DNA of 62,926 bases, the filler included, from Reticulomyxa filosa (Eukaryota; Protista; Foraminifera): NCBI GenBank assembly GCA_000512085.1. It is 7 parts of 7 records of this genome, joined end to end, with 100 filler letters (N's around TTAATTAATTAA, not from the genome) between each part and the next. Parts side by side here need not be neighbours in the genome. Positions count along the whole stretch, not along the records: positions 28,896 to 44,830 come from ASPP01021901.1; 6 more parts are not named here. One strand, 5' to 3'. Shown here piece after piece: positions 1,501 through 54,950 of the stretch; the first letter of the stretch is position 1, and every line of letters begins with the position of its first letter. The notes beneath the pieces are model-generated. The model ran no database searches. It worked only from the letters and a program-made list of their open reading frames with translations, and was not told where the DNA came from. The translations under genes were made by a program, and so were the position numbers.

Positions 1501-3244
1501 TTACAATTTGGCTTGTGTAGTAGCCAATTCCAACATAATTTCTTCCGAACCCGCAGCAATAGCTCCAGCTCGTATCATACGATAAAACTCTTCCACAACA
1601 GCACCACGTCCGCCTTTAACAAAACTTCTTCCACCAAAAATTTGAGAAGATTCAATGGCAATATATTGAGCCGTGCGAGAGGCATGGACCTTGAACAAAG
1701 CAATATTTCGAGCAATAGATTTGTCGTGGCGTCCAAACTTATCATATTTCAATTGATAAGCCACTTTTTCCATTAAAGCATAAACCGAAGCACATTGCCG
1801 AGCCATTTCTGCCAATTTATGACGAATTACCTGGTCGTTGTTATATTGTTGTTACTTGTTATATATACATATGTATAAATATTTTATTGACTGACTCCGA
1901 ATGGGATCATTTCAAAACTTTGAACTTTGCAAGAGAGGGAAAAAATAAATAAATAAATAAACAAATAATTAGACTTGGTGTTTGATCAAAGGCTTTCCAA
2001 ATGTGTGCCTTTCCTTGGCCCATTTAACACATTCTTCAATGGCCAAACGACAAGAAGAGACCATGTCGGCAGCGACAACAAACCGTTCGAAATTGAAGTT
2101 GTACATCAACGGTTTGAACCCCATATTTTCCTCGCCGATGATATTCGTTACTGGCACTCGGACATTGTGAAACGTCACCACTGCAGTGTCATTCAAATTC
2201 GCTCCTTGCAGTTTTATCTTCGATGTGAACAATCCAGTCGTTCGTGGCACCAATATCAACGATACACCTTGTCTTGATTTGTCTCCTTTGCATTTTTTTT
2301 ATTTTTATTTTTAAAAAGTATGTATTATATGTTAATTATTTCTTTGTTGTTAAATTTCAAACAACGACTAGAAATTTCTCAAAAGACCTGTTCTTGCCAA
2401 TGTTACAAAGTAATCCGCTCGCACTCCACCCTGATTTTTTTAATGCTTGCTTTTCAATGTATCGATCACCGGACAAACAACACAAAAATATAGCTACAAA
2501 ACAGTGATCCAATATTTCGAACCATTGATAATATAATCGTCACCTTCGCGTTTTGCGGTGGTTTGAATGTTTGCAACATCGCTTCCTCCTTTTTTTTTAT
2601 ATTATCGTTAGTATTATTATTGGATATTGCCATTGGGTTGTCTGTTTTGAGACGAACGAAAGCTTAGACGAGAACAGATGCTCGGACTGTTCCTTACCGC
2701 TCATCTCAGAAACAGCCAGAGAAATCATCTTCTCTCCCTTTCGCACTTCTTCGAACACTTGCTTGTGGATTGCATGATTTCCGAAATGCTTTACAACGGG
2801 TAAACAAATATAATGTATCCATGCTCCTTTACACATACAAATTAAATATATATGTACATACATATGAATATGTGTATATGCGTATTGCAGTGACAATTTT
2901 GGAAAAGGGACACATTTGTCACCTGTTCCTCCTTGAGCAGCCATGGTTTCGTAGCTGAAGATAATTGTGTAAAAGGGATCCCATTCACTTGAACCCTCAA
3001 ATTCCCCATATCCAAAGGGAAAGAAATAAGCGGCTGGATATTTTGTTGCCAATGTACTCATCAACTCTCGTGGCAATTGCTTGTCTTCATTGGACTTGCT
3101 GTAGCCTTCCCAGTATTTGCTTATCACTTCTTTGAACACGTCACGAATGTAGGTTCGAAAACGATAATGTCTTTCTGTGTAATAAGGACTTAAATGTTTA
3201 TCAAAGTCCACCAATGTTTGAAATTCTTCTCTATCATTGCTCAT
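1501..3244 (-). CDS. Acyl-CoA dehydrogenase (multi-exon), C-terminal -AKL
   Basis: Motifs [37 protein letters not shown] and IAAGSEEIM across ORFs 2597-3244, 1969-2259 and 1501-1815; the protein ends TQAKL*. Confidence 0.92.
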
Positions 3245-3719: not shown

Positions 3720-6700
3720 TTACGAGTATCTTTTTAATTCCAAGTGCAAGCAGCCTGACGATTGAATGTCCTGATGTTTGTATACTCCAACTAATGCATC
3801 AGCATATTGGAAGAATTTGTCTTTCAAAGAAATAACAATGACAGACAGCTCCTGTTTGGAAGCTTTATCCCGGAGAAATCGGCTGAGCCTCTGTACATTG
3901 TCTTTGTCCAACGCAGCATCCACTTCATCTAAAACAAAAAATGGGGCCTGATTGAACGAATGCATGGCAAACAGCAAAGCCAAACTGGCCATTGATTTTT
4001 CGCCACCACTGAGCTGGTCCATATTTCGAAAAGGTTTTCCAGGGGGTTGAGCAGTGTAATACAGTTCTTGAGCGAATGGCATAGCCACAGCAGATAATTT
4101 GAGATTGGCATGACCATGGACATCCGATTTGAACTTTTTTAAGTCGGGATCAAAAGCGGGTGTCAAATTTCCGTAAATAGCACCAATGACAGATCGAACA
4201 TGATTGTAACTTTTCATGAAGGCGTCAGTTCTATCTTTTTTGACCTTTTCGTAAGCATCCGTGGCTTTCAGCAATCGTTCGCGCAGCTTTTCTCTTTCAT
4301 TTTTGAACTCATTGTACGTTTTTGCCAATGACTCGTACTGATCATCGGCCTTAAAGTTTGGATACATGTCTTTCAGCTCTTTGTCTAACTTGTCGATTTT
4401 GTCCTTGAAGTCCTTAATGGCTCGATTTTGCTCCGCGCTGTCTTCAAAGCGAGCCTTTGGATTGGCTTCCATCGCACTAAAGTCGATGTCGTTCAGATTC
4501 AATTGACTGCCACTGATGTTCTCTCTCTTTTCCTCTTGTGGCTCCGGCGACGACTCATATTGATCACTGCTCGAGCCGTCCTCCTTTCTTCGACGTTTCC
4601 GGCGATGTCCAGCCTCTTTTTCCTCTTTGTCTTTCGCCATTTTTCTTTTGCGTTTTTTCCCAATTTTTGGTTCTTCCTTTTTCTTTTCTTCTTCTTCCTC
4701 TTCCTTTTCTTCTTCTTCTTCTTCCTTTTCTTCTTTCTCATCCGCTCTTTTTCTCTTTGCCCTCTTTCGTTTGCGTTTGGTTTCTTCTCGTAAGTCCACG
4801 GCGTCCAACTGGGCCTCTCGCAAGTGATTGTGGACAGAGAGCTCCATCTTCTCAATCAGAGACTCCCACGAACTGATTTCCGTTTGCGCTTTTTTCATCG
4901 CCTCTCTTTCTTGGTCGCTTTGCTTTTTCAGATTCGCCATTTCTTGTCGTTGCTCTTTTAACTCTTCCATCAGCTCATTCTGCTGCTTTTCGAGCTGGTG
5001 GTATTCCTTCTCTTCGCTTTTGTGTGTGCTTGTCGCGCCGCTTTGTCCTTTCATCAGCTATTGTAAACATACGTTCATTGTACTTATACACAAAACTCAT
5101 TATATATATATGTATATATCCATGTATATGCATATTTAAATATCTTTTTTGAACAATAAACTGTTTTCAATTGTGATTCCAAGTCTTTGATTTTCTTTTT
5201 GGTAGCATTGAGTTGTTCGTCCACATTTCTTGAATTTGCAAATTCCAACTTGTTTTTAATTTCTTGGATATTGCCTTGCAACGCTTGCTTTTGCTCATCT
5301 CTTTTTTGAATGCGTTCCAGCTTTTGTTCTTCAAACTCTTGCACTGACGAAAAGTTGACCTCTTTCAAAAACTTGGCAAAAATTTTGTTTTCTTTTTCGC
5401 GGATTTCAAATTCACAGTTTTGCAAAGCTTCTCTGGCGTCGTTCACCATTTTCTGTCGCTTGTTTATTTCCGGTGACAACTTTGTCATTTCCTTATTGAC
5501 ATTGCTCAAGCCTTCTTGCTGTTGCTTCAACAACTCATTCAAGGCTTGGATACGATTGTTCTTATCGGCCAAGTTCCTCTCCACGTCTTGAATTAAGGAT
5601 TGAATGTCCTCTTCGCTTTTGTCCGTGTCGAATCGATCGTTTATGTCTCGCAACTGTTGCAGCAAGTCGTCTCGTTTCGTCTCGATTCGTTTCAACGCAT
5701 TTTCGTCCCATCGATTGGCGCGATCTTGCGTGTTGCCGTGATTCGACCCTCCCGTGATGTTGCCATTCGGCGATATCATACTGCCATCTTCACACACAAT
5801 ACGGATCTTTTGACCCCGAGACCCGTACGCGATGCGTCTGGCCTCTTCCAAGTCTCTCACGATAATGGTCGTCCCTAACGCGTACAACACTGCTGGCTCG
5901 AACTGCTCTGGATATTTAATCACATCCACGGCCTGCAAGCAAAAACAAGACATTATGCATTTCAAAATGGTACACTGCAATTACAGTTCGCCAAAAAAAA
6001 AAAATAATAATAAAATACTAAACTGGAACAGCGGTGCCACCCAATCTTCGCAATCCTTGGTCGATTGGTTCGACACGTACGTGATTCAAAGGAATAAATG
6101 TCATTCGGCCACGCTTGCATTGCTTCAAGTATTCGATGCATTGCATACACGTGTCTTTAGAATCGACCACGACCGCGTCGTAATTCACTCCCAAGGCAAT
6201 ACTGATTGCAATGTTGTATTTCCTGGACGTTGGAGGAGCCAAATCGGCAAGACAGCCATAAACCCCACTGAACATTTGTTGCATGTTGCTCAACAACTCC
6301 CGTTGATCCCTTTTCTTTCGATTATCACTGTTGATTTTTTTTTTTTTTTGGATCGATTATTCTTTCAACTTTTGTGTGAATTTTTTTTAAAATCCAAAGA
6401 GAATCAAAATACAAACCGAATGGTGATGTCACTCTGTTCAAATTGTCTCAAGACACTTTCCAGCTCTTCGTTTACTTTGTTTCTTTGCTCACTACACAGC
6501 GCAAGTTAAACACATAATTTTTTTTTGACAAGTCCGGTCTTATACAACGTGTGAGAACAAAAACAATGAAAGATCCAACTTACGTTAGTGCAGAGAATTT
6601 TGTGTGATATTCAGCTAATTCCTTTCTTAAATTTTCACGTTCTCCATTCAATTCTTTCGTTTCTGCTCCCAATTCGGAGATTTCATACTTTTTTTTTTCG

Positions 6701-9040
6701 TTTTACAATTTGTTTAAGAGAACACATTACAATCTTATTACATTTTTTCAACCAATCAAAAAACACACAACATCACATGAAAAATTATTTAACTTGAAAT
6801 TGAGCAGCTTCTGTTTGAAAAGATTTTTGTCGTTCTTTGTATGCATCCATTTCCGTTTCAAGAGATTTCAATTGATTCTTTCATCAAAAAAAAAATGGAA
6901 TAGAAAAACATCAGAGGAAAAAATATAATTTTTTTCTAAACTTTTACGGCCACAAACTGGCGCTCCAATTTGTCTTTGGTTTCATTTTTTTCTGCTGTCT
7001 CTCGATATGCCTCTTCTTTGCATTTTCTGTATTGCTGATACTGAGCTTCTGCTAATTCAACTTGAGGTTCGTCTTCTCTTGTTTTCTTTTCAAACTCTTT
7101 CATTTCTCTCTCTGCTCCCTAAAAAAGAAGAATAAGCTTTCCTTAACAAACGCTTCACCTTGTTTTGGACATGTGTATTTTATTGGTTTTGAAAAGTACG
7201 AACCTGCAATTCGGCCTCCAAACTTTTCGCTTCGTTTGCACTTTCATCGTTTTGATGAGTTAATTTTGTTATATCTTTGTTTTCTTTTTGTATTTGTTTC
7301 TCCAATTCTGATTTTTTCATTTGGATGTTTTCCAAGTCCAAAGCCGCTTTGCTCAGTTTTTCTTTTTGCTTTTTTAATGTCTTTTCCATTTTTTTGGCGT
7401 TTCTTTTTTTTTTTATAAAAAATTAAGTGTTAAAAAAAACACAAAGATATTTATTTTATCGGATTTTTAAAATGTCGTGTTATTTTTTTAAAAAAATTTA
7501 AGATATGTACGCGTGTATATGTTTAAAAAAAAAAAGCGAAACGTTTGTGCTTTGCTCAAATCGGCTTGTTTGGATAAAATGACTTCGTCGTTTTCTTCCA
7601 GTCTTTTCTTAATTGTTTCCACTTCCTGCAAATGAACAAGTAAGATAAAATCTAACTGGTCTGAAAAATTTAAAAATTCTCTCTTTTCAGTTTGCCGATA
7701 TGATAAAACTAAACTTGATTCTTGGTTTCAATTCCCTCTGTGGCAATTGCCAAATCCTCGCGTAAATTGTACAATTGAAACATATAATATTCTCTTTGTG
7801 TTTCTCTTAATTCTTGCATCTTTTCAGTAAATGCTCTCGCTTCCTCCTTTTGTCTTCTCATATTTGATTTCTCTTTTGTTAAGTTTTTCCTTTTTCAACA
7901 AACAAATCCATATCTTTTTGGACCTATACAAAAAATTGGGTGAGTAGTGATTTGATTGGTTTGAACATCTCTCAATCAGCAAACAAACAAAAAACAGAAA
8001 CACAAAAGTACCTCTTCTTTTTCTTTGAATTTTTGATCATACTCTTCCTTGTATTGAATGGACCCCGACACTCGCTCCATCTATTTGTAATTTGATTAGT
8101 GGCAAAAAAAAAAGCAACATCAATACCTCAAACACAAGGCACATTCCAAAAGAAGAAAACATTTTGGGTATTACATACCCATTCGACTAGCTGTTTGCCA
8201 TTTTTTTGCGCAATTAATTCCACATCTCCCTGATAAACTAAAAAATTGGGTGACTTGACATCAACCCCAATTAGTTTCAACTTCGGTCATGTCATATTAC
8301 ACATACAAACACACAAGTCATTTGAAATGACCTGCGCCGACCAACAAAAAAAAAAACAAGTTTGATTGGCTGAACTTGATCTTTGTACTCTTGAGATTTC
8401 ACTCGCACGCCATTGACAAAATGAGTGATTGGTGAGGATTGTGTTCTTCGGATAGTCCGCTTAAATGAATATTCAGTGCCGCTTTCATACTCAGTATATA
8501 CCAATTCCACCGATGCACTAGATCCAACAAAATAAAAATGAAAAATAATAAATAATTCAAAAAAACAAAACAAAAATGTTTTGTGGTCTCTTTTAACGAT
8601 GTTGGGTCGCCGTTTTCATCATTTGGCGGTGATTTGTGAATGAGATCTTCCACTTTTTTCCCTCTCAGATCGTGTGCTTGTTGTCCGAAAACAAATGATA
8701 TCGCGTCCATTATATTTGATTTCCCGCTGCCATTTGGTCCGATGATACATGAAAAGTTATCAAAAGGTCCTAGCACAGATGTTCCTCCCCAGGACTTAAA
8801 ATTTTCTATTATTAATCGGGTTATTCTTCCTTTCGCTTTTTGAAAAGGGGATATTGGTTTGATTCTTCGCACATGTCCGGAACTTTTTCCACCGGACATG
8901 TTTACATCACCGTCATCACTTACCACCGACGGAGCCCGGCTTGACTCTCTTTCGACATGAGAATGAGAGGGTGACAAGGTACCTGCGCGGGCATTATGTA
9001 ATCGTCTATCACTTGAACTACTTATCTGAAAACTTGACAT
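3720..9040 (-). CDS. SMC1: Structural maintenance of chromosomes protein 1 (cohesin subunit), multi-exon
   Basis: N-terminal ENFKSW and Walker A IIGPNGSGKSNIMDAISFV; hinge GVYGCLADL...GRMTFIPL and DGSMISPNGNITGG; C-terminal QPPGKPFRNMDQLSGGEKS, Walker B PFFVLDEVDAALD, and VIVISLK...ADALVGV typical of SMC1. Confidence 0.95.
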
Positions 9041-10968: not shown

Positions 10969-13900
10969 ATGTGGCTGTTCATTGAAATTTTGTCCATAAT
11001 CTCACTTGCAACTTGTCATACTTGGGAACCTGTTCCACCCAATCCATTGACGATTCAGTTTCTACATTTTTTCAGTCTAAAAAAAACGAGGAACATGTAC
11101 AACGTGGGAATGCAAATTGCTTAATATAGAAATGTGCATATTGTATTTATGAATCATTTGGACGTTGGTTTTAGCGTTCCGGATGGATTGGGATTTGCTC
11201 ATGAGGTCGTGAACACATATTTTAACGGTATGAGATGTTCCATGAAGCCCATGTTTTTGTTTTCGTAATGTTATAAAAGTGAGCAAGCAAGCGTGATTTA
11301 AAAAAATAAACAAAAACAAAAAAAGTGTACTACCCACAAGCGATAGAAATGTATAAGCAGTCAGTAGAATTGAAAATCCCACCATATGTGTACACAACCC
11401 ATCCGTACTTGTTGTCCCTATATTTCAGCTGTCCACCGAATATGCAATTGGACTGTCCAAACGCAGGCAACGTGTCGGCAATGGAGAAAGCGATAAGCGA
11501 ATCAGGGAGCATCCGTTGGCACGCCTTTCCATTTAACAGTGAGTTGGAGTTATTCGATGAATCGATGTTGGCATTTGGAATCCAAGTGTCTCACGACCTA
11601 AGTACCCGATTCGGCGTTCCTCAGAGCAACGTCATATCACAAAGAGATGTTCCGGGAACAACGAGGAATATCATCCCGCACTTGTTACAAAACAATGTCA
11701 AAGCAATGACCATTGGATGCAACGGTGGAAGTGCACCTCCCGACGTTCCTAAGATATTCCGATGGCAAATGCCAAACGACAACAGTTCTGTTTATATCGT
11801 TTCACGTCATCATCGTAATAGATAATTACGCAAAATAGGCTTATATGTATATAATATTTATATGTTGTGGTGGAGACAGATAGCGAAATAATAATGATGT
11901 TACATCCTGGCGGCTATGGCGGTGTTGGATATAGCTCTTGCATTGTGTTGAATAACTTCACCGATGCTTTGTGCTTTGCAATTCGCGGAGACAACCAAGG
12001 CCCAGGAGACATTGAGTTTGTTTTGGAAATATACGCCGAAGTCAAACTTGAATTTCCAAATGCGAATGTATTTGCGTCTACGTATACTGCTTTTATCAAT
12101 CGCTTGTTGCAACAACCGTCGGTGGTGGCATCGTTGCCTCTGCTCACGGAAGAGATTGGAGACACTTGGATCCACGGCGCCCAAGGGGACTGCTACAAGC
12201 AAGCCGCATTTCGCAACATTCAAAGATTGCGTAACGAATGTCTAGTCAATGGCGGTTGCGATCTGAGCGATACCGCGTTGTACAATTTCAGTCGACTTTT
12301 GCTCAAAAGTGGAGAGCACACCTGGGGTATTATTTGTTTTTTTTTTTTTTTTTTTATGTATGTACGTATATACGTATACGTAATGTGTTGTTGATTCATT
12401 GACATATAACCTAATGTAAATTCTGTAACTGTAACAGGTGGAGATATTAAACATTTCTTGGCAAGTGGTGATCTCTCCGGTCCATATTACAACTGGTATT
12501 TTATACATGCACATACACACATAAATAAAAATATGCACGGAATATAACCATGACAAAAAAAAAAAAAAGTAGAGATGAAGAGCTTTTTTTTTTTATACAC
12601 CAACTCTTATTTAGCATATTAACAATATATTGAATGCAGGTCAAACCCTCAAGTTCATGCGTTACTCGCACAAAACAATACCAATATGTTCCTATTCCGT
12701 GCAACCTGGTGTGTCACTCGTTTTTGTTTATTTTTTTCCTCACACCTCCCACCCCTCCCTTTTTTGCTGTTCTTCAAATAAATAGAGAAATAAATAAACA
12801 TAAAAATACAACAAAGGTACGAACAAAGAAATTGGTCGATTGATATCCCCGTTCAAGCATTGAGCCTATCCACAAATGCCGCCAGTCAAAAGCTATACTC
12901 ACAAATCCAAGACGTATTGCAGCGCTTGCAAAATCCAATTATCCCAAATGTTAGCAACACGACAGAGTGGACATTAGTGACTTCGCCTGAAAATACAACG
13001 TTTTCAATCCGGGCCAGGGCGGATGGTAACATATACAATGTACAATTTGACGCAAAAACGGGAGGGATTAAATATTTGCAAAACACAAACACTGGGACAA
13101 ACTATGCATCTACCGACGACATATTGGGAGTATTTTTGTATCAAACCATGACCGAAACTGATTTCAACGAATTTGTTGCAGCTTATAGCTATCAACCCAC
13201 CGCTAGTTTTGTTGTACCTCTTTTTCTTTTCCAGTATGTGAGGCTCAAATTCCAAAGCATATGTTCAACGCTTTTTAATAGGCTGGGTACACTTTGATTT
13301 TGGAAAAGTGGATTTGGATGAAAGAGCAAATGTGACTCATTGGTATGGAAACGCAGAACTGGCAATGCTGTTTGTCAACAATGCTGAAAATACCTTTGTG
13401 AGTGTGCTGAATTTTGGTGAAAACAGCGAATGGCTGCGGACAAATTATGGCGCACCCATGGTAATTTATAATGTAATTAGTTTTGATAACGATAAAGCTC
13501 CCTTGACAATGGAATTCATATGGTCTAACAAAACGAGCAGTCGTATTCCCGAAGTTTTATATACATCTTGGAAAGTTAACAATTGTGATAACTGGGTAGT
13601 AAATAAACTTGGAAATCCTATCGATTTAAATCATATTGTCGCCAATGGCAGTTTTCATTTACACGGAACAACTGAAAATGTTACATGTGTAATGAATGGA
13701 AACAGTGGTCAAGTTAGCATCTACTCTGCCGACACGGCGTTGGTTACGTTCAAACCGACTGGAATGAGTGAATTCACTGGATTCCCAACGCCATTTGAGA
13801 AAGCTGATTTGACTCAAGGAATCGCTTTTCCTTTGTTTAATAACATATGGGGCACGGTATGTCACTTTCTTTAAATAAATATAAACAAAAAAGAAATGCA

Positions 13901-18027: not shown

Positions 18028-21000
18028 ATGGCCGCAGAAAATCAATCAAAAACACAAGACGGAACTAGAAAAAACTGTTCAAATCTCGAAGAAAGATTGT
18101 CTATCCTTGGGAGTAAAGTTTCAGGAGAGAATGATGAAGGAGGTCATGAGTTGCGATACCCTTTCGTGGACAGGGAATCAACAGTCAAGCTATCAGAAAG
18201 AAAGCCCCAAAAGCAAGAAAGTGTCAATGAAATCGAAAGGACAGTTAAAAAAAAAACGAGAGTTTTTTTTGGTATTTTTATGTCCCCTTCTGATGCTCAT
18301 TTGGCGAGTGAGACAGAGGGTTTAAAAAAAAAAAAGAGTGAGAGATTAGTCGCTTTTCCCTGTTTTCATCTTTCTTGTTCTGGGAGTCAGAGAGGAATCC
18401 AAAGGGGGGTTTAAAAAAAAAGCCTGAACCAGGGAGTGAGCCGCCAAACAAACTAAAAAAAGCGAAATCAGAGTTACAAATGCACGAGCAGCAAGGAGAA
18501 AGCAGTCCGAACAAGTCGTCGAAAGATGTGTTATCATCCAGTATTCTTTCAGGTTTTCTTCAAACAAAGCAACACCACTTGGAATTTTTTTTTATAAATA
18601 AATTGAACCAAAAAAAAAAAAAAAAGACGCGAAACCGCGTAAACTGAAAGCAGAAAGTTCGAGCTTGAGCGTGTTTAACGAAGCAGACAATGGCCATGTG
18701 TGCGATGTCAATGGCGAGCATAGCCAACATTGTGCACGAAAAGTGATGAAAAGAGACAGCGAGCACGAGAATAATAATAATAACGGCAATGGTAATAACA
18801 ATGGCAATGGTAATAACAATGGCAACGGTAATAACAATGGCGTTGAAAAGATGAAAGTCAAACATAGGAACAAAAAAATAATAAAAAGCAAAATTGATCA
18901 TTCGGAAGACAAAGGGGCTAAAAATCCGACAAAAGCGCGCAAGGATAGTTCTGGACATCGCAAAGCGAGACAGTCGCAAGAAAGTTCCCATTCGTCCTCG
19001 GTAAATGCCAAAGACAACGGCAGCAGATCGTTGATCCAAACGCTGTTCTCTTGGCAAAGTATTGTACTGATGGCACTGGTGTTTATTGGAGCATTCGTTT
19101 ATAATGGATTCCAACGCCAATCCAAAGCAAGGTCTGGCATATATCCTTCACCTTTCACGAAGAACAGATTACAATGTCCTCAACAAATACATTTCATCCC
19201 AATTTCACAAAAAGAGTTTTTCATCAATGCCTCAGGTTCCATTGGGAAAAAAAAAGAAATTGCATACACACATATACACACACACATACATACATCTCTC
19301 TTTCGCATTTCGTGTGTATAATTATGTCAACCAATTCAATGGCATTTTGTCTCAAAGGAGGAGGGGGAGGTGGAGGTGGAGGTGGAGGGAGAGAGGAAAA
19401 AATACACATGCACATCCTTGAGATAATCTAATATTCTATTACATATATGTATATGTATATATATATATATATGTCCATGCTTATACACACACTAGTGCAA
19501 TGCATGCAAATACGTAATATGTTTGTTGAATGTGTGCATGCATGCGAATGAAAATACAGACGCGGGACTGGACGAAAACACAAAGTTTTATTGGGACGTG
19601 TCCGAATTGTATATGGATGGTAACAACCAAGTGAGTGGAGAAATGACGCCGGTATTGAAGATTGAACCGTACAAGAAATTCAAAGTGACAAATGCCAAAG
19701 TAACGCTGTACATGGAAGCAGAACATCCAATGACCGGCGAAGCGATACTACAGAAATGCGACATTCAATTGAAGTTCGCCAAGGCCGTGGTTTTTGGAAT
19801 CGATTTAGGAACAACGTACTCATGCATCGGATATCAAGTTGATAATACTGACCATTACCATCCGACGCTTCAGAAGCGGATTAACAAAATTGTCGTAGCC
19901 GACCCTTTGGTACTAACAAACAAACCATTTCCATTACACAAAATAAATCAATACATTTGCAAGTCTATGCATATGTGTATACGTATACGTATATACATAT
20001 GTATGTATATATATTTATATACATATATACGTGTGTGTGTGTGACGAACAGAGACAACAGTATTGTATACCCACAGCGATCTATTTCCCAAAAAAAGCAG
20101 ATGCACCAATACTATTTGGGCAGGACGCTCTAAAGATGCTGTCCGTCGATCCCGAAAATGTGATCTACGACGTTAAGCGTATCGTTGGCCGTCGGATCAG
20201 CGACAATGAAATTCGACGATTTTTGACAAATCACCCTTTTCGGCTCACCAAAGATGAACTTCCACAAATCCGAATTGCCAATCGAAATACGACCATATCA
20301 GCGGAACAAGCATTGGCCGCTGTTTTGATTCACTTGGTGGAGTTAGCATCGATGGAGTTTCAGGTCCCCTACATCCGCGACGTTGTTGTGTCCATTCCTG
20401 CTTACTTTCACAATGGACAGAGAAAAGCAATTCGAGGTGCATGCTACTTGGCAGGTCAGCAGAAGAACAACTTATCTGTACATATATATATGTACATGTA
20501 CATGTTATGTGTGTATGCACATGCTCTTTTTTTTAAAAAAAAAAAAAATTACTAGGATTAAACCTATTGCATTTGGTCGCAGAGCCGACTGCGGCCGCAT
20601 TGGCACATTCTTACTTAAGCGCTACTCCAAAAGATAATTACAAGCAGTTTATGACGTTTGATTGCGGTGGAGGTACGACCGACTGCAGTATACTATCGTG
20701 TATGGGGATCAACTGCAAGTGTGTGTTTTCTCTTGTATTTCAAAATTGTGCCAATGTTTATATATGATGAGCGATGTAACAATGCAAAATAAAATAAAAC
20801 AATAACACAATAACACAATAAAATTGATGGGAATATTGCAATAAACAGAGTTTTGGGAACTGAAGGTAATAGCACTCTCGGCGGTATCGAGTTCGACGAT
20901 GTCATAAAAGACATAATTCGTGAAAAATTTCGGACAGAACACGGATGGAAAGACGAAGACTTTGGAATAGAGCTGAAGCTGCTGAAAATCGCAGAACGAG

Positions 21001-21998
21001 TGAAACACGCTCTCACAGAAAACGAGGCTGAGGAAGTAATGCTAAAGAATAAGGCGGGATTTTATTCGGTCACTGTCACTCGTCGAGAATTTGAAACGCA
21101 TCCACGCACATTACAATTGATTGACTTTGCCATAGAAACGGCCAAACGGGCCATTCGTCAAATGGCATCTGGTAATGTTCGAATGATGCTAATGGTGGGA
21201 GGGACGTCTCAATTGCCAATATTGCAAAGGAGACTTCGCGAAGAGTTTTCGAATCTTTCTCAAGAAATAAAGATCGAATTGCCACAAGAGCCCCAATTAA
21301 TGGTAGCACTGGGTGCAGCCATTGTTGCAGGGACATATGAATTCGGCTGTGAAAGTGATCCTATCGTTTGTGACGGCACTATCAATGATCTTGACGATGT
21401 TATCATTAGAGATGTTTTGCCTTTGTCTCTTGGATTTTCCATTTGTGATTGCTCTTCAAAGTTAACTTTTTTTTGTTGGTTCCTCAGTAGATAATGTAAT
21501 GCAATAAATATATATTGTGCATTACATACATTTATCAAATGAAATAACAACAACAAATACAGAAATTGCGATAACGACGACAAATTGTGGGAATGCGATT
21601 TAATGAATGTCATTGTTCCAAAAAATACTCCATATCCCTTCAAATCGGCACCCATTTTTTATTGTCAAAAAGATCGTGAGTCCTCCATTGTCAAGTTGAA
21701 ATTATACGAAGGTGATGATCGTCTTGCAACACAAAACTATTTCTTGGGCGTTTTAGAAGTTTCTGATCTTCCTCCACGTCCTTCAAATGTATGCAATTCC
21801 ATTCAAGTCCAATTTGTCATTGATAAAAATGGAATTGCTGATATCAATGTCACTATTAATGACGAAAATCAAATTGCTATCAATCAATTTCGCAAACAAG
21901 TATCTATTGAAACCAAAGACGGCTCATTGACTTCCGAACAAATTGCCCGACAAAAACGAGAAATGAAATCATGGTTCCCTCATACCAGCGTCTTTTGA
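18028..21998 (+). CDS. Atypical Hsp70-family protein with long low-complexity N-terminus, one TM segment and truncated lid
   Basis: GIDLGTTYS, VSIPAYF, VAEPTAAA, FDCGGGTTDCSIL, LGGIEFD, LMVGGTSQLP, linker IRDVLPLSLG and SBD-beta (LYEGDD, QFVIDKNG). A hydrophobic WQSIVLMALVFIGAFVY precedes the ATPase domain. The 5' start is less certain. Confidence 0.85.
18770..18841 (+). repeat. Coding (NGNGNN)n repeat, about 18-bp unit, in the Hsp70-like N-terminus
   Basis: aataacggcaatggtaataacaatggcaatggtaataac... translates as NNNNNGNGNNNGNGNNNGNGNNNG. Confidence 0.8.
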
Positions 21999-26780: not shown

Positions 26781-28209
26781 TTACCAATAATCACAATCTA
26801 TGTCAATATTCTCATAATCTGTCGGTATATCTGACAAAACATCAAAATAATCTTTTTCTAAAAATTTCAAATCTTCACGAGCTTCAAGAAATTCTGTTTC
26901 TTCCATTTTCTCTTGAACATACCAATGAACAAAAGCTCGTTGTGAATACAGATAATCAAATTTCTCTACAATTCTTTTGTTAAACATTCGATAAATAGCA
27001 GTATTATTAGCAATAATAACAGTATTCTTGTTCCATGCACCAATATCATCTACTTCCAAGGTAGCAGCAGGGATTTGATCTAAATTCATTTTACATCCAG
27101 TTGGGCACCATTCTACCAAAGAAATTTTGTTATTTATTTTAAGCCAAATATATTCAGCGTTTGCTTCTTTAGATTTAACATCTCCACGAAAATTAAGATA
27201 AAAGGCCATATATTTGTCTTCTGCTGGATCAAAATTAGTATATTGGACAAGCCAATTGGATGGTTTAAAGCATTGATCAACAATATCTTGTAAAGTGTAT
27301 GAAATGTTGGATAAATGTGTTTTAGGTACAATTGGACTCATTCCTGTAGTCAAAAAATGTAATCGTTGAAAAGCAACCAAGGAGGTCGAATATTCATCCA
27401 GATAAACATTCAATTCTGCTCTAAATCGAAGAGAAGTAGTCATTGAAGATATCACTTTTGAAATTAAACGGTTCAAGTTATTTATGTCAGGTTTTGTAAT
27501 AAACAGCTTGTTTTGACAAAGACCATAAATAGCTTCGTTATCTAATACTAAAGATATATCAGTATGATCTATTAACCAATGTGTTGCTAGCAATGCATTG
27601 TAAGGCTCAGTAACACAAGTAGATAGTGTTGGTGATGGATATATATCAAATCCTATTTTTTCTTTTTTTTTATAATCTACTGCAAGATGTTCTAAAATCA
27701 ATGAACTCAAACCAGATCCTGTCCCTCCTCCAACGCTATGAACAATCATAAATCCCATTAAATAGTCAAAATGTTCTATTCTTTTTCGTATCTTGTCATT
27801 TACTTTGTCGATTATTTGTCCCCCAATTGAATAAAATCCCCGTGCAAAGTTATTTGCAGCATCTTCTTTTCCAGACAATAAAAACTCACGAGAAAATAAT
27901 GCTGCAAATGGTCCATTTATCACATTGTCAATTACACTAGGTTCTAAATCTATCTTTATTATTATTATTTTTTTTTTTAAATCTCTCTATTGTGTTAAAA
28001 ATATCGATTTTTTAAACTGCCAAGTTTCGTGGTATAAAATGACCATCGTTGGTTTCTTCAAAGAATACTGTGACTAAATCATCTCTTGACTTTTCATCTT
28101 TTCTTTTGCCCGTGTTATCAATATCATGTTCTGCACAATATTGCTCCCATATTGCATTTCCAAGTTGAATGCCTGCTTGACCAATTTCTATTGTTAGTAC
28201 ATCTGGCAT
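26781..28209 (-). CDS. TUBA: Highly divergent alpha-tubulin (one intron, about 27954-28017)
   Basis: GQAGIQLGNAIWEQYCAEH, PRNLA/DLEP, SGKEDAANNFARG, HSVGGGTGSG, EPYNALL, LDNEAIY, VEWCPTG and RAFVHWYV are alpha-type signatures. Confidence 0.93.
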
Positions 28210-28795: not shown

Positions 28796-28895
28796 NNNNN
28801 NNNNNNNNNNNNNNNNNNNNNNNNNNNNNNNNNNNNNNNTTAATTAATTAANNNNNNNNNNNNNNNNNNNNNNNNNNNNNNNNNNNNNNNNNNNN
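28796..28895. other. Assembly spacer (N-run with TTAATTAATTAA six-frame stop linker)
   Basis: The same 100-bp structure recurs six times in the window. Confidence 0.98.
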
Positions 28896-28963: not shown

Positions 28964-31899
28964 TGCAAAATGAGTCAACGAACAAATGTTTGGCGAAATG
29001 GTTGTTCCTTCTGCATATCGATTGTCTCCCATAAGACGATATGTCCCTGGTCCGAATGACACTTGTCCAAAAATGCTCAATGATACGTATTCACACTGGC
29101 CTGGAGCCACTGACACTTGCCAAAGCCACAAGTCGAACAAATCTCCGACAAACCCGTTTGGTATCATTTCGTTGGTAAACTCACTCACCAATCCTTTTTC
29201 TTCGCATCGGCAAGGTACTTGGATCCAAAGCTCTGCCAAGGCTACTGGCAGTGGACTTGGATTACAACTTGCTGGTGGGTTCATTGCTATCGTTTTGTTA
29301 TTTTTTTTTTTTGTGCAAATTACAAAAATGTAGACTCCATACGTCTCTCACAATTAGCAAGCTTTTTAAGCAAAATGTGACTCTCTTCAAAAGTCAATCT
29401 TCATTTTTTTTTGGGAAAAAAAAAAACCAACTTACCAGCAGTGCAAACTTTGTATATGATCGTGGTTTCTCCAGTTGCATTGTCATAGTTTGAGTTGAAA
29501 AAGTCGAGTGACCATTCAGAATTAGTTGGACTGCATTGCATACGATGGGAAGGACATGGCACTCGATCTGCTGGAGGGCATACACCTTTTTTTTTTTATT
29601 TAATCATTCACAACAAGGTCATTTGCACAAAAGATGGCTGCCTCCGACTCCTTCTCTCTCTCTCTCTCTCTCTTCACAAAATAAAACAAACAAAACAAAA
29701 AGAGCTGGTTACCTTGCATTGTGGGTGGTAATGTAAGTGGAAGAGACGGAGGCAAAACGATGCTCGGGGTTGGAGCTGGAAACGAGCCAGGAGTAGGAGG
29801 GAACACTACACCACCGCTTGGAGGAGCAGTTACACCAGGAGTTGGAGGCAGCACTACAGGTGGAGTTGGAGGCCATACAACACTGCGGGTCGGAGCGACC
29901 GAAAAGGCTCCACTTGGAGGAATGGTGAAAGGAGGTGTTGGAGGAATGGTGAAAGGAGGCGTTGGATGCATTGTGAGAGGTGGAGTTGGAGGTAACGTGA
30001 GCGGTATAGTTGGGGGCAACGTAAGAGGTTGAGTCGGAGGCAATGTAAGAGGTGGAGTTGGAGGCAATGTAAGAGGTTGAGTCGGAGGCAATGTCATAGG
30101 TGGAGTTGGAGGTAGCGTAAGCGGTTGCGTTGGAGGCAGTGTCAAAGGTGGAGTTGGAGGCAAGGTAAGAGAATGGGTTGGAGGCAGTGTAAGCGGTTGA
30201 GTTGGAGGCAAAGTAAGAGGTGGAGTCGGCGGTAGTGTAAGTGGTTGGGTTGGAGGCAATGTCATAGGTGGAGTTGGAGGCAGCGTAAGTGGATGGGTTG
30301 GAGGAAGTGTAAGTGGTTGCGTTGGAGGCAGTGTCAGCGGCGGAGTTGGAGGCAGCGTAAGAGGAGCAGTTGGTGGCAATGTAAAAGGTGGGGTTGGAGG
30401 CTGTACATGTCCTGTCATTTGTGTTTATTTTATTCATTTTTTTTTTGTTTGTTTGTTTTCTCGTTTGCAAACAGTGAGACAAAAGAAAGTGTTAAAACTT
30501 ACCCACACATTGGAAGGTGATGACACCAGAGCCATAGAAAGATCCATGGTATTGCAAGCTTTTCGTTACTCCACGTGCAAAAATGACAGGTACTTGCACA
30601 AGAGGTAGTGTGGTATCAAAGTCAAACGAAAAGTATCTATTGTCATTGATTTGGACTGGCCGAACCATAGTGATCGTAGTGCTCGGGCCAGATTCAACGA
30701 CTTTACTGAACAATAATGAGCTCGGTAACATGACACCAAGGCTGTCATGTCCGAGCTTGTACTCTTTAAATCTGTTATTCACAGATATGTTCTGGAGCGG
30801 TTGGTAGATCATTGCATATGTCCCATCCATCACAATACTGCCGAAACCCATGCCAAACCATACATCGGCCATTTGCGTCCCTCGATACATCAGCATAATT
30901 TCCACAGTTGTCTGATGTACATCAATTTTTAGCAGATTGATATCTGCTTCCATCAACAATTGTGGCACAGCTTTCCAAATAACAGGCTCTACAGTTTTGT
31001 TTGTCCATGTGTTTTCATCAAATAGAGAGAAAAAAAAAAAAAAAAAAAGGATCAATTTTTGTTGTCGTTGTTATTAAATTAATCCATTTGTATTACAAAC
31101 CACTTTTGTCAGAGATAGACGCTTTCGCAAAGGCATGAAGCAGACTGGAAAATGCACATCCGGACATTATTGTGTCTTGCAATTGTGGAGGGCCACTACA
31201 ATCGGCAGTAACAAACTGATTCCTCGAAAATTCTCCTGCGCCATAGGAAAACGAGTAATGATCAATGCAAAGTGTCTCGTCTTTTGCTAAGTGATACTTA
31301 TACGTAACCGCACCATTGTCGTCACACACTCCATTTTGGCTTGACGCTGTCACGTTAATGTCATACTGGCACTGGTAATACGCATCACAGTTGCAATTTG
31401 TCGATGGCACTGATCGCTCAAACGTTGTCGGGTCGCAGTTCGGGCCTTTTTTTTTTTTTTTTTTATAAACATGCCAAAAGTGCATACATTTTTTTTTTAC
31501 GATAGGGACGAAGTTTTTTGCAGCTCATTTTTTTTTTTTTTTTGTGGGTTGTCCATAAGCAAGTCATGCAACAAAGGAGGGGGGGAGCATAATCTGCGGA
31601 AAAGGAGAAAAGGGGAAAAGTGCATGGCAATTACCCGAGTAGTAGTTAAAGTATGCATGCCCGTTGCTGTCGCAAGTGGCACGGAACCACTCTTCGCGAA
31701 CTGTAATGACGTCGCCATTTGGGGGCAGCACTTGTTTTACGTAGTTACATTGGTTTAGTGCAAATGGCAACTTTTCAGTTGGGTGATAGGCATAGCCACA
31801 CGCCTGACTTCGGATCACAGAAGGATAGTACAACACCAACAACAACAAGGATTCCAAAAAGAGTCCTTGCGCTCGAGTCATTAGTGATTGTTTATTCAT
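28896..31899 (-). CDS. Secreted modular protein: Cys-rich domain, DOMON domain, Pro/Thr 8-aa repeats, second Cys-containing domain, His/Asp-rich repeat; 3' end lost in gap
   Basis: Signal peptide LFLESLLLLVLYYPSVIRSQAC; DOMON VWFGMGFGSIVMDGTYAMIY...TMVRP...VIFARG...LQYHG; PPTxPLTL repeats; exon 29433-29585 reads GVCPPADRVPCPSHRMQCSP...; the last exon ends HHDHHDHDHHEHDHHD. The introns checked are phase-consistent. Confidence 0.8.
29720..30400 (-). repeat. 24-bp coding tandem repeat, about 28 units of PPTxPLTL
   Basis: About 20 well-conserved and 8 degenerate octapeptide units in ORF 29600-30418, with extensive synonymous variation. Confidence 0.92.
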
Positions 31900-36432: not shown

Positions 36433-37096
36433 TCAATGACCAGAATGTTCATTTAGCAGTTCCATATCATCATCAGGTAGAGTTTCTTCATCATAATCCC
36501 TTTCAATATCAATTTTTTTGTCAACAAAATGATCTCCAGTGACATGTGAAATAGCGCTGGTAAGGTTTCCCATTTGTCCCAAATGATAAACCGTGGCAGC
36601 TGAAAGACTCAACAACAATGCATTTAAGTACCAAACATAAGGTCCCCATGACTCAATATTCCACAGCACGAATACAACTATCAAATTTAATGGGATTCGG
36701 AAGATATTCATCACAGTGGCCCGAATCTGTCAAACAACAAAAAAGAAAGGTTGAACAAATGGAGTATGAAAAACAGTCTAAAAATTATTTCGAACGAGGC
36801 ATGCATGGACCAGATAAACAAGCAACAATCAGCACAAAACTTCATCTTGTACATATCGGCCGCGCAACACTCCGACAGTCGGAAACCACAAGCCAACAAA
36901 AAACTCAAATATAAAAAAGCTGAGTAATCGAATCTCATAGCTATTGGCCATGACAATGAACATGCAAACGGCTGTACACACGAACAATACCAACAACAAA
37001 ACCAGCTACATATTTTGGACATATATACAGCATATGCTTATATTTTGCATGCTATATTACAAACATATACATATATGTATATATAATATGCACGAA

Positions 37097-37129
<33 letters not shown>

Positions 37130-38545
37130 GAGTGTGTGGAAAATGACCTGATCCAACACAAAGTATCAAACAGATATATTCCGCGGACCAATTCAATCGT
37201 TTGGTCAAACCTCCATAGACGTCATTACCGATCAAACAACACAACATGAAATTTGCAAATATCCATCCGTGATCAACCCTCGATCGATCACCGGACACTT
37301 TTTCCAAGCTGGGACTCCACATGAATACAACTGTATTTTTATTTAATTTCGATGGGCGTTCATTGTTTCCCAACATAATAAAAAAAAAAAAATGAATGAA
37401 TAAATAAATAAACTTACTTATTTTGTATACAATATATACATGTACATATATATGCATATGTATATAACTTACACAAATACATAGAGCTTTCAAATCCACT
37501 TTGAATGACACCTAACAAAAAAATTTTTTTATCAGTGCGAAAGGCTTTGATGGATTTGGCAATGGTGTCGGAGACATTGGAAGTGACATCGCCATAGTTT
37601 TCCTCCCATTGATTCCAAATCAAAACCATTGCGACTATCAATGCCAAGCTGCTGCAGTCGAACGCCGCTACCTCTGGCGGCGTGCCACCAAATATATTGT
37701 ATTGCGAGTATATGTGCACCGCCGTGGAGGTGATCACCCCTGCCAACACTGCCACGATTGAATTCCAGCCCCACGCCAATTGAAATGTGTCACTTAACAA
37801 GCCCGAAGGAAAATGGCACAAGTGATGATGAGTTACCATGTACGACTCAAAGCCTGAAAATAATATCGCCGTCGACACTCCACCTAGAAATCTTTTTTTT
37901 TTTTTTTTTTTTTTTTTTTGAGAGAGGAAAGTACAACAATACGTATACTTTTTTTGTTGCGTTTATTTGTTTGAAAGAGGATATTAAAAAAAAAAAAAAA
38001 AACAAACGCAAGACCTTCCCAGCATAAGCACACGAAAGTCAGAATAATGTTTGGTGATGCAAGCAATCATGTAAAAAATGCAAAATGAAATGCATGTGAG
38101 CCTGCGTCCGAATCGATCTGTTAATCCGCCAACAATTATTCCAAATACACCTGCCGTTCCAAATCCAACCACAAACAATAGTGCTATTGCTTCTTGAGGA
38201 TATCCATACGAGTGATATAATTGATACACGTATGGCCCCTTTATTTGTTTAAGTTTTTGTTTTTGCTTTTTTTTTTGGGAGGGGGGAGAAAAAGGGGGAT
38301 TGCTGTTTCGTGCCCTTTATGAACGGAACAAATCATACTTGCATCCAATCTGCTAACATTACCATCAAAAATATTACCACATATGAGCCTTGAAACTGAT
38401 AGAATTTTTTTGTGGTTTCTGCGTTGTTATTTACCGTTTTCTTTTCGAGAAAAAGATTCCAGCCTAATCTACTCTTCAGATAGAGCACTACCAAAAATAA
38501 CACTAAAAAGTGAATATGGTGCTCACGCAAAAGATCAAAGTTCAT
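36433..38545 (-). CDS. MFSD5: MFSD5/MOT2-type molybdate-anion transporter (MFS), multi-exon
   Basis: FQGSYVVIFLMVMLADWMQGPYVYQLYHSYGY, LFVVGFG, GGLTDRFGRR, GRFLGGVSTAILFSGFES, WEENYG, IQSGFESSMY, FMWSP, HGWIFANFM, MNIFRIPLN. Confidence 0.9.
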
Positions 38546-45020: not shown

Positions 45021-47100
45021 TTATTGGGACATGACACCAGAAATGTGTGAATACAACAAAATCCCTGTAAACCCTTGGCAACCATCACCCGACAACCCTT
45101 ATTTCAGTAGTGCGGCGGCGGCTGCAGCAAATGCAGCAGCGGCAGCCGTGACAAATCCTCACAACAAAGATTTGTATAAAAACCCAATTAACGCGAGCAA
45201 TATGACAGTGATTGCTCAACGCATGAGTGGCGCCCATGCTGGCATTCTGCAAAACTCATTGATTTCGTCCTCAGGCACGTCTGCAGATAGTACGAACTCG
45301 GCCAACACGAGCAGGGAACATGGTCGCTCTCACAGTCGCAGTGATAGTCGTAGCAACAGTCGTGGTCGAAGTCGAAGCAACAAACGTTCTTCAAAGAAAT
45401 CTCGCCATCATGAATCTTCCAACAATAACAAATCGATAATCGAGCCAATCACCGAACCGGGATTAGCATTGACTGCCAGAGGCGCTAATCCATTGGCCGT
45501 CGCAGCCGCTGTTGCAACTGCTACGACCAATCCTTTGATTATGGCACTAAACAATCCTTTATTGAAAAAAGTCGGACAACCCAATATTCCTATTGGAAAT
45601 GCTTCCAGTACTGGGATATCTTCTTTTTCCTCTTCTTCTTCTTCTTCTTCTTCTTCTTCTTCCTCGAATAGTGGCAATGTCGATGGCATACCCAAATTGG
45701 TACCCACTGCACCATTGCTCGCTGTCAATCCTTTGGCGGCCTTATTGTCCAAAATGAAAGAGGCCACACAAGCAAACAAAGGAGCGACGGCGGGGGCTGG
45801 AGCTTCTACGAGTAGTGACCCGTCTGCTCAAGCGAATGACAACGCCATGGGAAGGGACGAACAAGACCTCGCCGATGCCATGCAACAAAGCAACTATCTA
45901 CACGCTTCGCGAGCATCCAAACGCATTTATGTTGGAAGCTTACCTCACAACGCAGATGAAGAATCCATTCGACAATTTTTTAACAATGCGATGATTGTTG
46001 CTCAAGGAAAAGAAAGAGAACCAGGAGATTCCGTTACCAATGTATATTTGAATACGCAAAAAAGGTATTTTTTTTTTAAAAAAAAAAAAAAAAAAGATAA
46101 CACAATACACATATATGCTACTTTTTTCTTTTATTTGTGAAAAAGATTTGCGTTCATTGAGTTTCGAAGTGCTGAAGAAGCAACCCAAGCAATGGACTTA
46201 GATGGCATTCAGTTTTATGGAGAGTCATTGAAGATCGGACGCCCAGCTAACTATAATCCTTCTTTGGTACCTGACGAACTAAAACCAAAGAATGTTGCCA
46301 AACTGAATACTGCACGGCTGGGTATTGTAAGTAACCATGTTCCAAATGGTCCAAATAAATTATATTGTGGAGGAATTCCCTACTCGTTGACCGAAGACCA
46401 AGTGCGTGAGTTATTGCAAACATATGGACCTCTGAAGGCTCTCTTCCTAGCCAAAGATCCTGTCACTGGATTTTCAAAAGGCTATTGTTTTTTTCAATAC
46501 GAAGATTCCAGCGTGACCGATGAAGCCATTGCCGGGCTGAATGGAATCAAAATTGGAGATCGTCAATTAGCTGTAAGAAGACACACTCCCGCATCGGGAT
46601 CAGGAATGCAAAATAATGCCACTTACAGTCCATTCAACCAAATGTTCGGAGACAACCCGCTAGAAGGATTGTTGAGTGGCACAAATAATCCATTTGGAAC
46701 TACTTGGGGAGGCAGTACCAACATGGCAATGGAGGCGGACATGTCAAAAAATATGAACAGCAATTCACAAATCGATTCCAATGTAACTAATGTGCTATGC
46801 TTGTTGGAAATGGTCACTGAAGAAAATTTGGTTGATGATAGGGATTTTGCTGATTTGTATGAAGATGTCAAAGAAGAGTGTAGCAAATACGGTGAAGTAC
46901 TGAGCATGGAAATACCGAGGCCCTCAAAAGATAGTGATAGTACGGATAAATCACCAGGCGTGGGGAAAATATTTGTTGAGTATCATACCCTCCAAGAAGC
47001 AATGCACGCCAAAAGCAAATTAGAAGGGAGAACCTTTGACGATAGAATCGTCACTGCTACATTCTATCCGGTAGCACAATACAAATCAAAAAAATTTTAA
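45021..47100 (+). CDS. U2AF2: Splicing factor U2AF large subunit (U2AF65); 5' exon(s) lost in gap
   Basis: ULM-like YWDMTP right after an acceptor at about 45020; RRM1 KRIYVGSLP...KR/FAFIEFRS...AMDLDGI...LKIGRPANY; RRM2 NKLYCGGIP...TGFSKGYCF; UHM VLCLLEMV...EDVKEECSKYG...IPRP...GVGKIFVEY...GRTFDDR; intron 46065-46145. Confidence 0.95.
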
Positions 47101-52943: not shown

Positions 52944-54950
52944 TTATGATTTCAACAAAAATTTTTTGAGTGTGCATTTTTCATTGCCTTTGTCGTGGTA
53001 CAATGAACCATGAGTAACTCCTAATTCATTATCATTTGACCGAGGGATGAACTCTCGCAGGGCAAATTTAGATGGTCTGCAGTCAATGAAATCCAAAGAA
53101 GGTGGATCTTTAAACACGACACCACTCTGTTTTAAGTATTTTCTGCATTCCGTTTGGTTGTCAAATCCAAGGGCTGAAACAAGTGATTCTACTGAATACT
53201 GCATTTGTCCATATGCAGTACAAATGTAAATTAATGTTCGATACCTTACTTTATGAAGAATTTGCTGCAACATGCATTTGACGAAGTGTGGTGCTGTTTT
53301 ATACAGGCAAAAGAATTTCATAAAGTGCATTGATCTTAGTGAGTCAATAAGGTTACGTACCTTTACAATCTATTGTATCCCCTCCTCTCCCCCCCCCGCA
53401 AAGAGAGAGAATTGGCCAATCGTTGTAAGCACATTAAAACTCGAAAAAAAGACCAGAAAACGAAACTTCGGGATGTCTTCGAAAGGAAGAATTCGTTTTC
53501 AAAGTGTCAATTATCCCAACCGAGTTTCGTGTAATTGCAAAGTATAGCAGTCGATATGACAAAAATTCTACAAAATTTTGTCGAAAAGATTTGTTCAACT
53601 TGTATAATTCTTTCAATTGTGACTGGCACTGGTTAAACTCGGACAAATCCCCGACCTCCAAACAAATACGTGCATTACATTCATAGACGTCAACAGTGAA
53701 TTGGTTCCTTATATGTTGGACTCGCAAGTCTTGTCGCAGTGATTTGAACTGATTACCAACAAAGGCGTAATCCCCACTTAAATTCCACTCTTTCAATATC
53801 ATGCGAAAGGCTAAATTACAAGTTTCTTCATCTCGAATTTCTTCCGGTTTAGGTGCCTTGCAAAGATTCACACACACACACACATACATACGCATACATA
53901 TATATACGTATACATACATATACATATATATATATATTTTTTTTTCTTTTGGCATAAAAAAAAAAAAAAAAAAAACAAAGTACACAAGTGAGTCGCAAGT
54001 AAGGCTTTTCAATCTCTTTGCATGTTCCAATAATATGCAAACTAAGGTAATCGGACTTGTCAGTGATCTGTGCTTCTGCAATTGGAATATCATTTTTTGT
54101 GTATGGTTTTTCTTTTGTTTGAAAACGAGCCTTTCGTGCCATTATCTTTGCTGTCTCGTCGCTTTCTATGACATTTGCAAAAATTGCTTCTTTGGTCATT
54201 ATTGATCTTTTCAAGTTGTTTTTCTTTGCATAATTGCCATCTTCTTCACTCCATGTAATTGCTTGTTCGTCTTTGTCTTCGATAAATGCATCGATTTGTT
54301 TTTGTATGCCACTGTTCATTGCTGTTGCCACTGCTATTTTGCCTTTCTTTTTTTGGTTGCCTTGATTGTTTTGTTTTTTTCTTTTTCTTTCAATTCTGTT
54401 GTTCTGCTGAGGCAATGTCCACCGTGATGTGACTTGCTCATAGTTCTCTTCAAATGACTCGAAATCTAAATCTGACTCCGTTTTGATTGACTCCGTTTTG
54501 ATTGGCTCCGTCTTTTTTGGTGCATTGCTTAAATTCTTTGTTTGTTTTGTGTCCATCTTTTTCTCAAATACTGCCTCCGTTTTTTTGTCATCAACAGTGG
54601 TTTGGTCAGATGTCATCGCCATTACATACGCTCTACTATTCATTGCTTTTGCATTTCCTGTTTTCCATCCCGTCGAATCGGTCATTATATCAGAATTGCC
54701 ATTGGTGTTGGTATTGTTATTATTCTTGTTCTTCTTGTTCTTCTTGTTCTTTTTTTTTTCTTCTTGCCAGCTGTTGATACTCCTTCCTTTGGCTCTTGAA
54801 GAAAATCATTCACCCTTGCGTCTAATTCAGTGGGCGAATCCTGTTTTCACAAACATTTGTCTTAAGATGATAACAACACTTTAAAAAAAAAACATTGTAC
54901 GAAACCGATGGTATCATACTCGTAGTTCTTCACTCTGGAACGGGTTTAAC
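52944..54950 (-). CDS. LENG8: LENG8/THP3 (SAC3/GANP PCI-domain) protein; start uncertain
   Basis: IIGTCKEIEKPYLRLT/APKPEEIR, NQFKSLRQDLRVQHIRNQFTVDVYECNARICLEVGDLSEFNQCQSQLKELY, EFLSYRLLY. Confidence 0.88.

Follow-up and report, generated by a model that had tools for sequence, protein, structure and literature searches.

Textbooks treat the recognition of uridines by U2AF65 as a fixed part of how 3' splice sites are chosen. The acceptors of Dictyostelium are A-rich. In Dictyostelium and Entamoeba, the polyT signal of short U2-type introns peaks 15-40 nt upstream of the acceptor, while most fungi show an even spread, according to two comparative studies (PMC2483917, PMC3033335). In human U2AF65, a structural study lists N289, Q333, A335, H230 and D231 as uridine contacts, several of them running through backbone atoms, and found K260A/N289A to cause a 36-fold loss (PMC3616741). 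The human R227N and D231V changes raise uridine specificity, and R227N disfavours purines, in another (PMC9128377).

The MFSD5 intron and the curated intron set

We analysed a 63-kb stretch of DNA from the foraminiferan Reticulomyxa filosa, hereafter the window. An earlier note on this DNA had drawn attention to one intron of an MFSD5 gene, described as carrying a T-run after the donor and an A-run directly before the acceptor AG, with boundaries fixed by the conserved GR/FLGG. The features of this locus are as follows.

36433..38543, minus strand: MFSD5 (molybdate-transporter family) coding region, with five introns (acceptors: three A-rich, two T/G-rich)
37892..38014, minus strand: MFSD5 intron 2 (focal intron), 123 nt, GT...AG, phase 2, within the Arg codon of GR/FLGG; placed by homology and top profile score
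37986..38002, minus strand: T17 run, beginning 12 nt past the focal donor; read from the sequence
37893..37919, minus strand: A27 run of the focal intron, the A of the acceptor AG counted in; predicted single-stranded, with a mean pairing probability of 0.07-0.11

In the sense direction, the focal intron starts with GTCTTGCGTTTG-T17 and ends with A27-G, as claimed. Its excision gives G-R-F-L-G-G, and none of the six aligned relatives (from P0051-P0058) has an insert at this point. When all in-frame GT/GC-AG pairs within 45 nt were scored, the focal intron ranked first with a profile score of 139.9, the next splice choice reaching 127.8. Judged by homology, the focal intron is real; it is also an extreme case among the introns of the window. 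The adjoining exon is 100% identical to the public R. filosa model RFI_25472, which lacks the focal intron and translates its A-run as poly-Lys. This model conflicts with the homology-supported splice sites at four of the five MFSD5 introns and keeps intron pieces as coding sequence; its poly-Lys and poly-Phe inserts are missing from all aligned relatives. The T/A intron pattern misleads gene finders, and such errors call for caution with foraminiferan proteomes and with intron statistics derived from models of this kind. Another MFSD5 intron, 36972-37147 on the minus strand, has a strong predicted fold (z -3.3), built from TA-repeat palindromes and from T20 and A13 runs that lie next to each other.

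All intron counts given here are based on 69 curated introns from 16 genes of this window alone. The introns were called by an ab initio model free of splice-composition terms and then corrected manually by eye; ambiguous regions and gap-touching introns were excluded. The set contains 21 introns of tier A, 42 of tier B and 6 doubtful ones (tier C), and the composition results were unchanged when tier C was dropped. Some tier A labels depend on presumed family motifs. Profiles of relatives were applied to 24 introns of the SMC1, MFSD5, U2AF65 and acyl-CoA dehydrogenase genes, and ranked the curated acceptor first in 21 and both ends first in 20. The exceptions were an SMC1 junction that lies next to a frameshift and was uninformative, MFSD5 intron 36972, for which the profile preferred an alternative splice choice, and dehydrogenase intron 2827. 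The other 45 introns were placed by visual inspection of phase and open reading frame, by which the choice of acceptor may be biased. Excision from GT to AG restores the conserved protein, as for U2-type introns, and intron length ranges from 60 to 324 nt (median 96). Mobile introns (introners) were considered as a source and rejected: among the 69 introns there were six short matches (23-50 nt), all between carriers of TA/TG simple repeats. A search against Rfam gave no match anywhere in the window.

The SMC1 gene, on the minus strand, is an otherwise intact 13-intron gene with a one-base frameshift at about 7890-7895, beside an A-run, which is probably a homopolymer error. Six 100-base gap blocks are found at 28796, 44831, 48434, 50791, 55777 and 59710, several of them beside long A or T runs; the five that were read contain the TTAATTAATTAA spacer. 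Since genes are cut at these blocks, the window consists of several joined contigs. Homopolymer run lengths may be inexact, because the SMC1 frameshift lies beside an A-run and gaps abut long runs. Two further genes were observed: a strongly divergent tubulin gene with one intron (26781-28209, minus strand), which we take to be alpha-like from its motifs, and a gene at 18028-21998 (plus strand) in which a long N-terminus of low complexity and a predicted membrane segment precede a domain that we presume from motifs to be Hsp70-like.

Composition and splice signals of the introns

The introns are T-rich at their 5' end and A-rich at their 3' end. AT skew was -0.28 over the first 30 nt and +0.10 over the last 30 nt, and 50 of 69 introns had the higher value at their 3' end (p=5e-6); for the 21 profile-confirmed introns it went from -0.26 to +0.06 (3' end higher in 16 of 21, p=0.046). 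T content was 46-50% over the first 32 nt, and A reached 50% at positions -13 to -4. Homopolymer runs of at least 7 were found at 12.0 per kb in introns, 5.0 in intergenic DNA and 0.8 in coding sequence. Their placement within introns is also uneven: the last fifth of the intron holds 23 of 47 A-runs and only 2 of 42 T-runs, and 13 of 69 introns end in an A-run of at least 7 followed by G (null mean 2.8, maximum 11 across 2000 draws). A T-run preceded an A-run in 18 cases against 3 in the reverse order, the corresponding ratio in intergenic DNA being 11:11. The T/A polarity of these introns is therefore real and exceeds chance, although it is not universal among them.

The individual sites listed in the earlier note were recovered. 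They comprise A-run acceptors at 31446 (A18G), 29586 (A11G), 49623 (A11G), 16507 (A10G) and 23196 (A8G), (AAT)n-AAAG acceptors at 27954 and 51310, T-runs behind the donors at 12327, 46065 and 53983, and an intron with a normal T-tract, said to lie near 6880 and found at 6878. The two kinds of run do not go together at these sites. The seven A-rich acceptors have 5' T-runs of just 2-7, none of at least 8 within the first 40 nt, and in the introns of the three T-run donors the 3' A-runs measure 2-5, none longer than 5 within the last 40 nt. Representative introns are listed below.

7403..7542, minus strand: SMC1 intron ending in A11G, with T11 past the donor; the only terminal-A intron besides the focal one with a T-run of at least 10 near the donor (profile)
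6688..6793, minus strand: SMC1 intron ending in A10G, without a long 5' T-run (profile; no in-frame alternative)
2589..2697, minus strand: acyl-CoA dehydrogenase intron ending in A9G, longest T-run 3 (profile)
31446..31634, minus strand: intron with a terminal A18G and T-runs of up to 4 (curated by phase)
12327..12437, plus strand: intron with T19 past the donor, acceptor without A-run (curated by phase)
53857..53983, minus strand: intron of a gene presumed SAC3-like from a family motif, T20 past the donor, acceptor without A-run (phase)
46065..46145, plus strand: U2AF65 intron in which, near the donor, T10 leads straight into an A18G that is not used; the acceptor in use has a T-rich stretch and then A5G

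Acceptors were classified as A-rich (29 of 69), pyrimidine-rich (17) or mixed (23), and different kinds occur even within a single gene, MFSD5 having both A-rich and T/G-rich ones. The final trinucleotide was AAG in 27 introns (39%), CAG in 24 and TAG in 18, GAG never occurring, so that the acceptor reads HAG; position -4 is an A in 49 of 69. Between -12 and -2, AG is depleted relative to GA, which points to an AG exclusion zone (3 against 28 over all 69 introns, a count that curation could have inflated, and 0 against 7 in the 21 best-supported introns of tier A). By the definition of PMC2483917, a minimal polyT motif is missing from the last 30 nt in 33 of 69 introns and from the first 30 nt in 12. 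Eight internal sites with an A-run followed by G are skipped. Four of these lie within 36 nt of the donor, three deeper, at 67-74 nt past the donor and 27-70 nt upstream of the used acceptor, and one in a doubtful intron; an A-run plus G is thus insufficient as an acceptor. The used acceptor is the first AG past nucleotide 50 in only 32 of 69 introns (GA control, 18 of 69), and a nearest-AG rule therefore holds only partially. None of seven branch-point patterns was enriched over shuffles at -50 to -8. This does not exclude a U2-type mechanism, because degenerate branch points are frequent in intron-rich species.

Two classes of donor were observed among the 69, GTT (n=33) and GTA (n=25). GTT donors are preceded by an exonic A in 21 of 33 cases (G in 8) and have G at +6 in 16 cases, against 4 at +5; GTA donors are preceded by G in 17 of 25, and their +5 position is G in 11 cases, against 2 for +6 (contrasts between the classes, p=0.001 and p=0.0004). 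The sequence of the GTT class would be compatible with U1 pairing moved by one base.

U2AF65 encoded in the window

The window also encodes the protein that normally reads the pyrimidine tract.

45031..47100, plus strand: U2AF65 gene, 5' end missing at an assembly gap; identified by orthology search

Orthology to U2AF65 was supported by an E-value of about 1e-41, against 1e-22 for PUF60. The tandem RRM1-RRM2 and the C-terminal UHM are present, together with segments that we take, from their motifs, to be the RS region and the Trp-containing ULM. In human numbering, to which its residues map unambiguously by sequence, the protein carries the changes R227G, H230A, D231N, F262Y, N289F, Q333R and A335H, and retains Y152, F197, F199, Y302, F304, R150, K225, R228 and K260, which include the RNP and stacking aromatics. 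G227 and N231 occur in all 33 sequences of P0001 and P0071-P0103 that span these positions, whereas the outgroup has R227 in 91 of 94 rows and D231 in 92 of 94. Position 289 is F in R. filosa and N in 88 of 94 outgroup rows, an outgroup that is mostly animal and whose plant and other non-animal rows likewise differ at 289 and 333. F or W289 is found in 24 of the 34 rows (P0001, P0071-P0103), along with Y262, R/K333 and H335.

A tree built from 54 of 129 aligned rows recovered a supported 34-row clade that includes the second R. filosa copy and the chlorarachniophyte Chlorarachnion reptans, whose U2AF65 has G227, N231, Y289 and R333. As the changes are common to a clade with this species, they are likely ancient within Rhizaria. 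Of these changes, R227G, D231N, F262Y, N289F, Q333R and A335H fall on or next to uridine-contact sites of the human protein, and the R. filosa U2AF65 likely no longer needs a pyrimidine tract. Because the human R227N and D231V changes increase uridine specificity, the direction in which the R. filosa changes act is not predictable from them.

At least two U2AF65 genes are present in R. filosa (82% identity over the exon searched), with the changed residues in both; the second is P0071. The N-terminus of the paralogue RFI_02482 looks like a translated intron at the same junction. P0079, whose label is Nonionella stella, has H289 and does not group with the clade that holds R. filosa and Chlorarachnion reptans, and may be mislabelled or a paralogue. 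When metagenomes were scanned with the U2AF65 alignment, 16 loci were obtained, ten of them on short contigs with 62-69% identity and a match length that leaves no room for introns, two (L014 and L019) off-target and intron-free, and four at 39-41% identity.

Readings of the pattern and comparison with known systems

The earlier note suggested that U-runs at the 5' end may pair with A-runs at the 3' end and so define the intron, much as AC/GT repeats bridge the splice sites of fish introns. The polarity of the runs is correct for such pairing, introns 37892 and 7403 each have a run of either kind at their ends, and in 7403 the two ends are predicted to pair with each other. However, a 5' T-run and a 3' A-run occur together in 7 introns, with 9.3 expected; in none of the 12 window/length settings did co-occurrence exceed expectation or reach significance, in a test with a simulated power of 0.98 for 60% versus 15% linkage. 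Run lengths do not covary positively either (correlation -0.14 to -0.20; Spearman -0.20), a T-run of at least 10 within the first 40 nt is found in only 2 of 13 terminal-A introns, and no T/A linkage across exons was seen (7/24 versus 10/29). Co-occurrence across introns is the defining evidence in the fish case, in the text available (PMC4691745). Folding of 67 of the 69 introns gave 9.2 end-to-end pairs against 7.9 in shuffles (p=0.28), with expected values of 3.9 for terminal-A introns and 6.0 for the others; the mean folding z was slightly below zero (-0.43, p=0.03), with z < -2 in 9 of 67. In the focal intron, a forced U17:A helix carries a penalty of 4.1-5.7 kcal/mol and A27 is predicted to stay unpaired, the 5' end being occupied instead by an internal hairpin.

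37957..38011, minus strand: predicted internal hairpin, 12-bp stem between intron nucleotides 4-15 and 47-58 (z -2.1; 6 of 200 shuffles equally stable)

Since U-runs and A-runs are seldom present in the same intron, end-to-end pairing is unlikely; the data do not support the pairing model, which we hold to be quite improbable. Still less probable is that the A-run acceptors are artefacts of annotation or assembly. The likely homopolymer error in SMC1, the gaps adjoining long runs and the different acceptors of the public model speak for it, but the terminal-A acceptors at 37892, 7403, 6688 and 2589 all rank first by profile, and the inserts of the public model have no counterpart in relatives.

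Two other readings are somewhat less remote, yet both appear doubtful. The T-first/A-last order could be a general trait of non-coding gaps between coding blocks, through UTR composition or nucleosome-linker polarity, with splicing merely tolerant of it; the pattern reads the same on the opposite strand and so could operate in DNA. AT skew is -0.26 over the 30 nt past stop codons (negative in 10 of 14) and +0.16 upstream of start codons (positive in 7 of 9), which together gives the expected sign in 17 of 23 flanks (p=0.017), in small samples with predicted starts and after omission of two YciI coordinates and one MFSD5 coordinate that failed a codon check. These flanks did not differ detectably from those of donors and acceptors (p=0.67 and 0.77). 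Oriented poly-T/poly-A tracts of Dictyostelium, whose lengths are uncorrelated, are linked to nucleosome-free regions in the text available (PMC3371697). On the other side, run order is balanced in intergenic DNA and polarised in introns, and the AG exclusion, the 39% of AAG and the U2AF65 changes are left unexplained. U-rich 3' UTRs and A-rich start contexts, moreover, have separate causes. The like skew at stop and start codons means that part of the polarity is not specific to splicing; this part may be a general coding-flank or chromatin feature, partly compatible with a tract-independent acceptor. Slightly less probable again is a rhizarian U2AF65 re-specified for an A-rich tract, with the A-run as a positive acceptor signal in place of the pyrimidine tract. 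The clade-fixed aromatic and basic substitutions on the RNA face (at 289, 262, 333 and 335) and the crowding of A at the 3' end favour it, but the 69 acceptors include 17 pyrimidine-rich and 23 mixed ones, the eight internal A-run sites stay unused, Chlorarachnion reptans is likewise changed at 227, 231, 289 and 333, and the human R227N disfavours purines in the text available (PMC9128377). A bolder version, equally tentative, would have both intron ends rewired in Rhizaria, most of all in foraminifera: U2AF65 would read A-tracts, and U1 would recognise, in a register shifted by one base, a further major class of donors, A|GTTnAGT. If U2AF65 did read A-tracts, this would be a natural spliceosome using a poly-A acceptor tract.

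We favour, with a probability of about 0.58, short GT-AG introns spliced by the major spliceosome, with an acceptor that needs no pyrimidine tract, a relaxed U2AF65, and runs that grow by slippage under a ban on AG. From the observed ends, composition, AG exclusion and U2AF65 residue changes we infer intron definition, relaxed binding and slippage. The short intron would be recognised over its whole length, and its 3' site would be a near AG downstream of a degenerate branch point. U2AF65, with altered uridine-reading side chains and retained stacking aromatics, may bind the tract with little base preference. Homopolymers could then expand by slippage wherever the sole strict rule is the absence of AG, and under that rule an A-run in the 3' zone would be closed either by T or C or by the G of the acceptor. 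The two kinds of run would be independent outcomes of the 5'-T/3'-A bias, with pairing not required; the T-first/A-last order itself is left unexplained by this tract-independent model. The earlier note's alternative suggestion, altered 3' site recognition, is plausible and has a specific protein correlate. The acceptors without minimal polyT, the frequency of AAG and the clade-fixed U2AF65 changes lend it indirect support. Its description as an undescribed system is better replaced by that of a variant of the major spliceosome. A lineage with up to 40% A-rich acceptors and contact residues fixed differently offers a natural, testable variant of U2AF65 reading.

Foraminiferan A-rich acceptors or an altered U2AF65 were not found in the titles and abstracts searched. 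A description of R. filosa acceptors was likewise not found in the available text of PMC13746701, PMC11347168, PMC12730881, PMC11069148 and PMC10245619, whose figures and supplements may hold splice logos.

Comparison with described systems, as far as the available texts go, places the R. filosa introns among known variants with two distinctive features. Like fish (AC)m-(GT)n introns, in which U2AF2 is bypassed, they have complementary simple repeats enriched at opposite ends; the fish repeats occur together across introns and add to folding stability (PMC4691745), whereas the R. filosa runs do not co-occur above expectation and the intron ends pair no more than in shuffles. With the poly-T/poly-A of Dictyostelium gene ends they share strand-oriented homopolymers of uncorrelated length in an AT-rich protist, but the Dictyostelium tracts mark transcript starts and ends, and the word 'intron' does not occur in the text of that paper (PMC3371697). 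The protein is a clear orthologue of human U2AF65, whose RRM1-RRM2 has been described on a pyrimidine tract (PDB 5ev1, 6xlw; PMC3616741, PMC9128377), with aromatics retained and the seven residues given above changed. As in the U2-type introns of fungi and amoebozoans, the introns are short and GT-AG, with T-rich motifs not focused at the acceptor (PMC2483917, PMC3033335). They differ from these in a T peak past the donor, A-runs touching the AG and the share of AAG, and a branch-point consensus, which fungi and Dictyostelium have, was not detected in the window. Weak or displaced tracts are already known in fungi and amoebozoans; A-runs that touch the AG, and the changes in U2AF65, were not found in the titles and abstracts searched.
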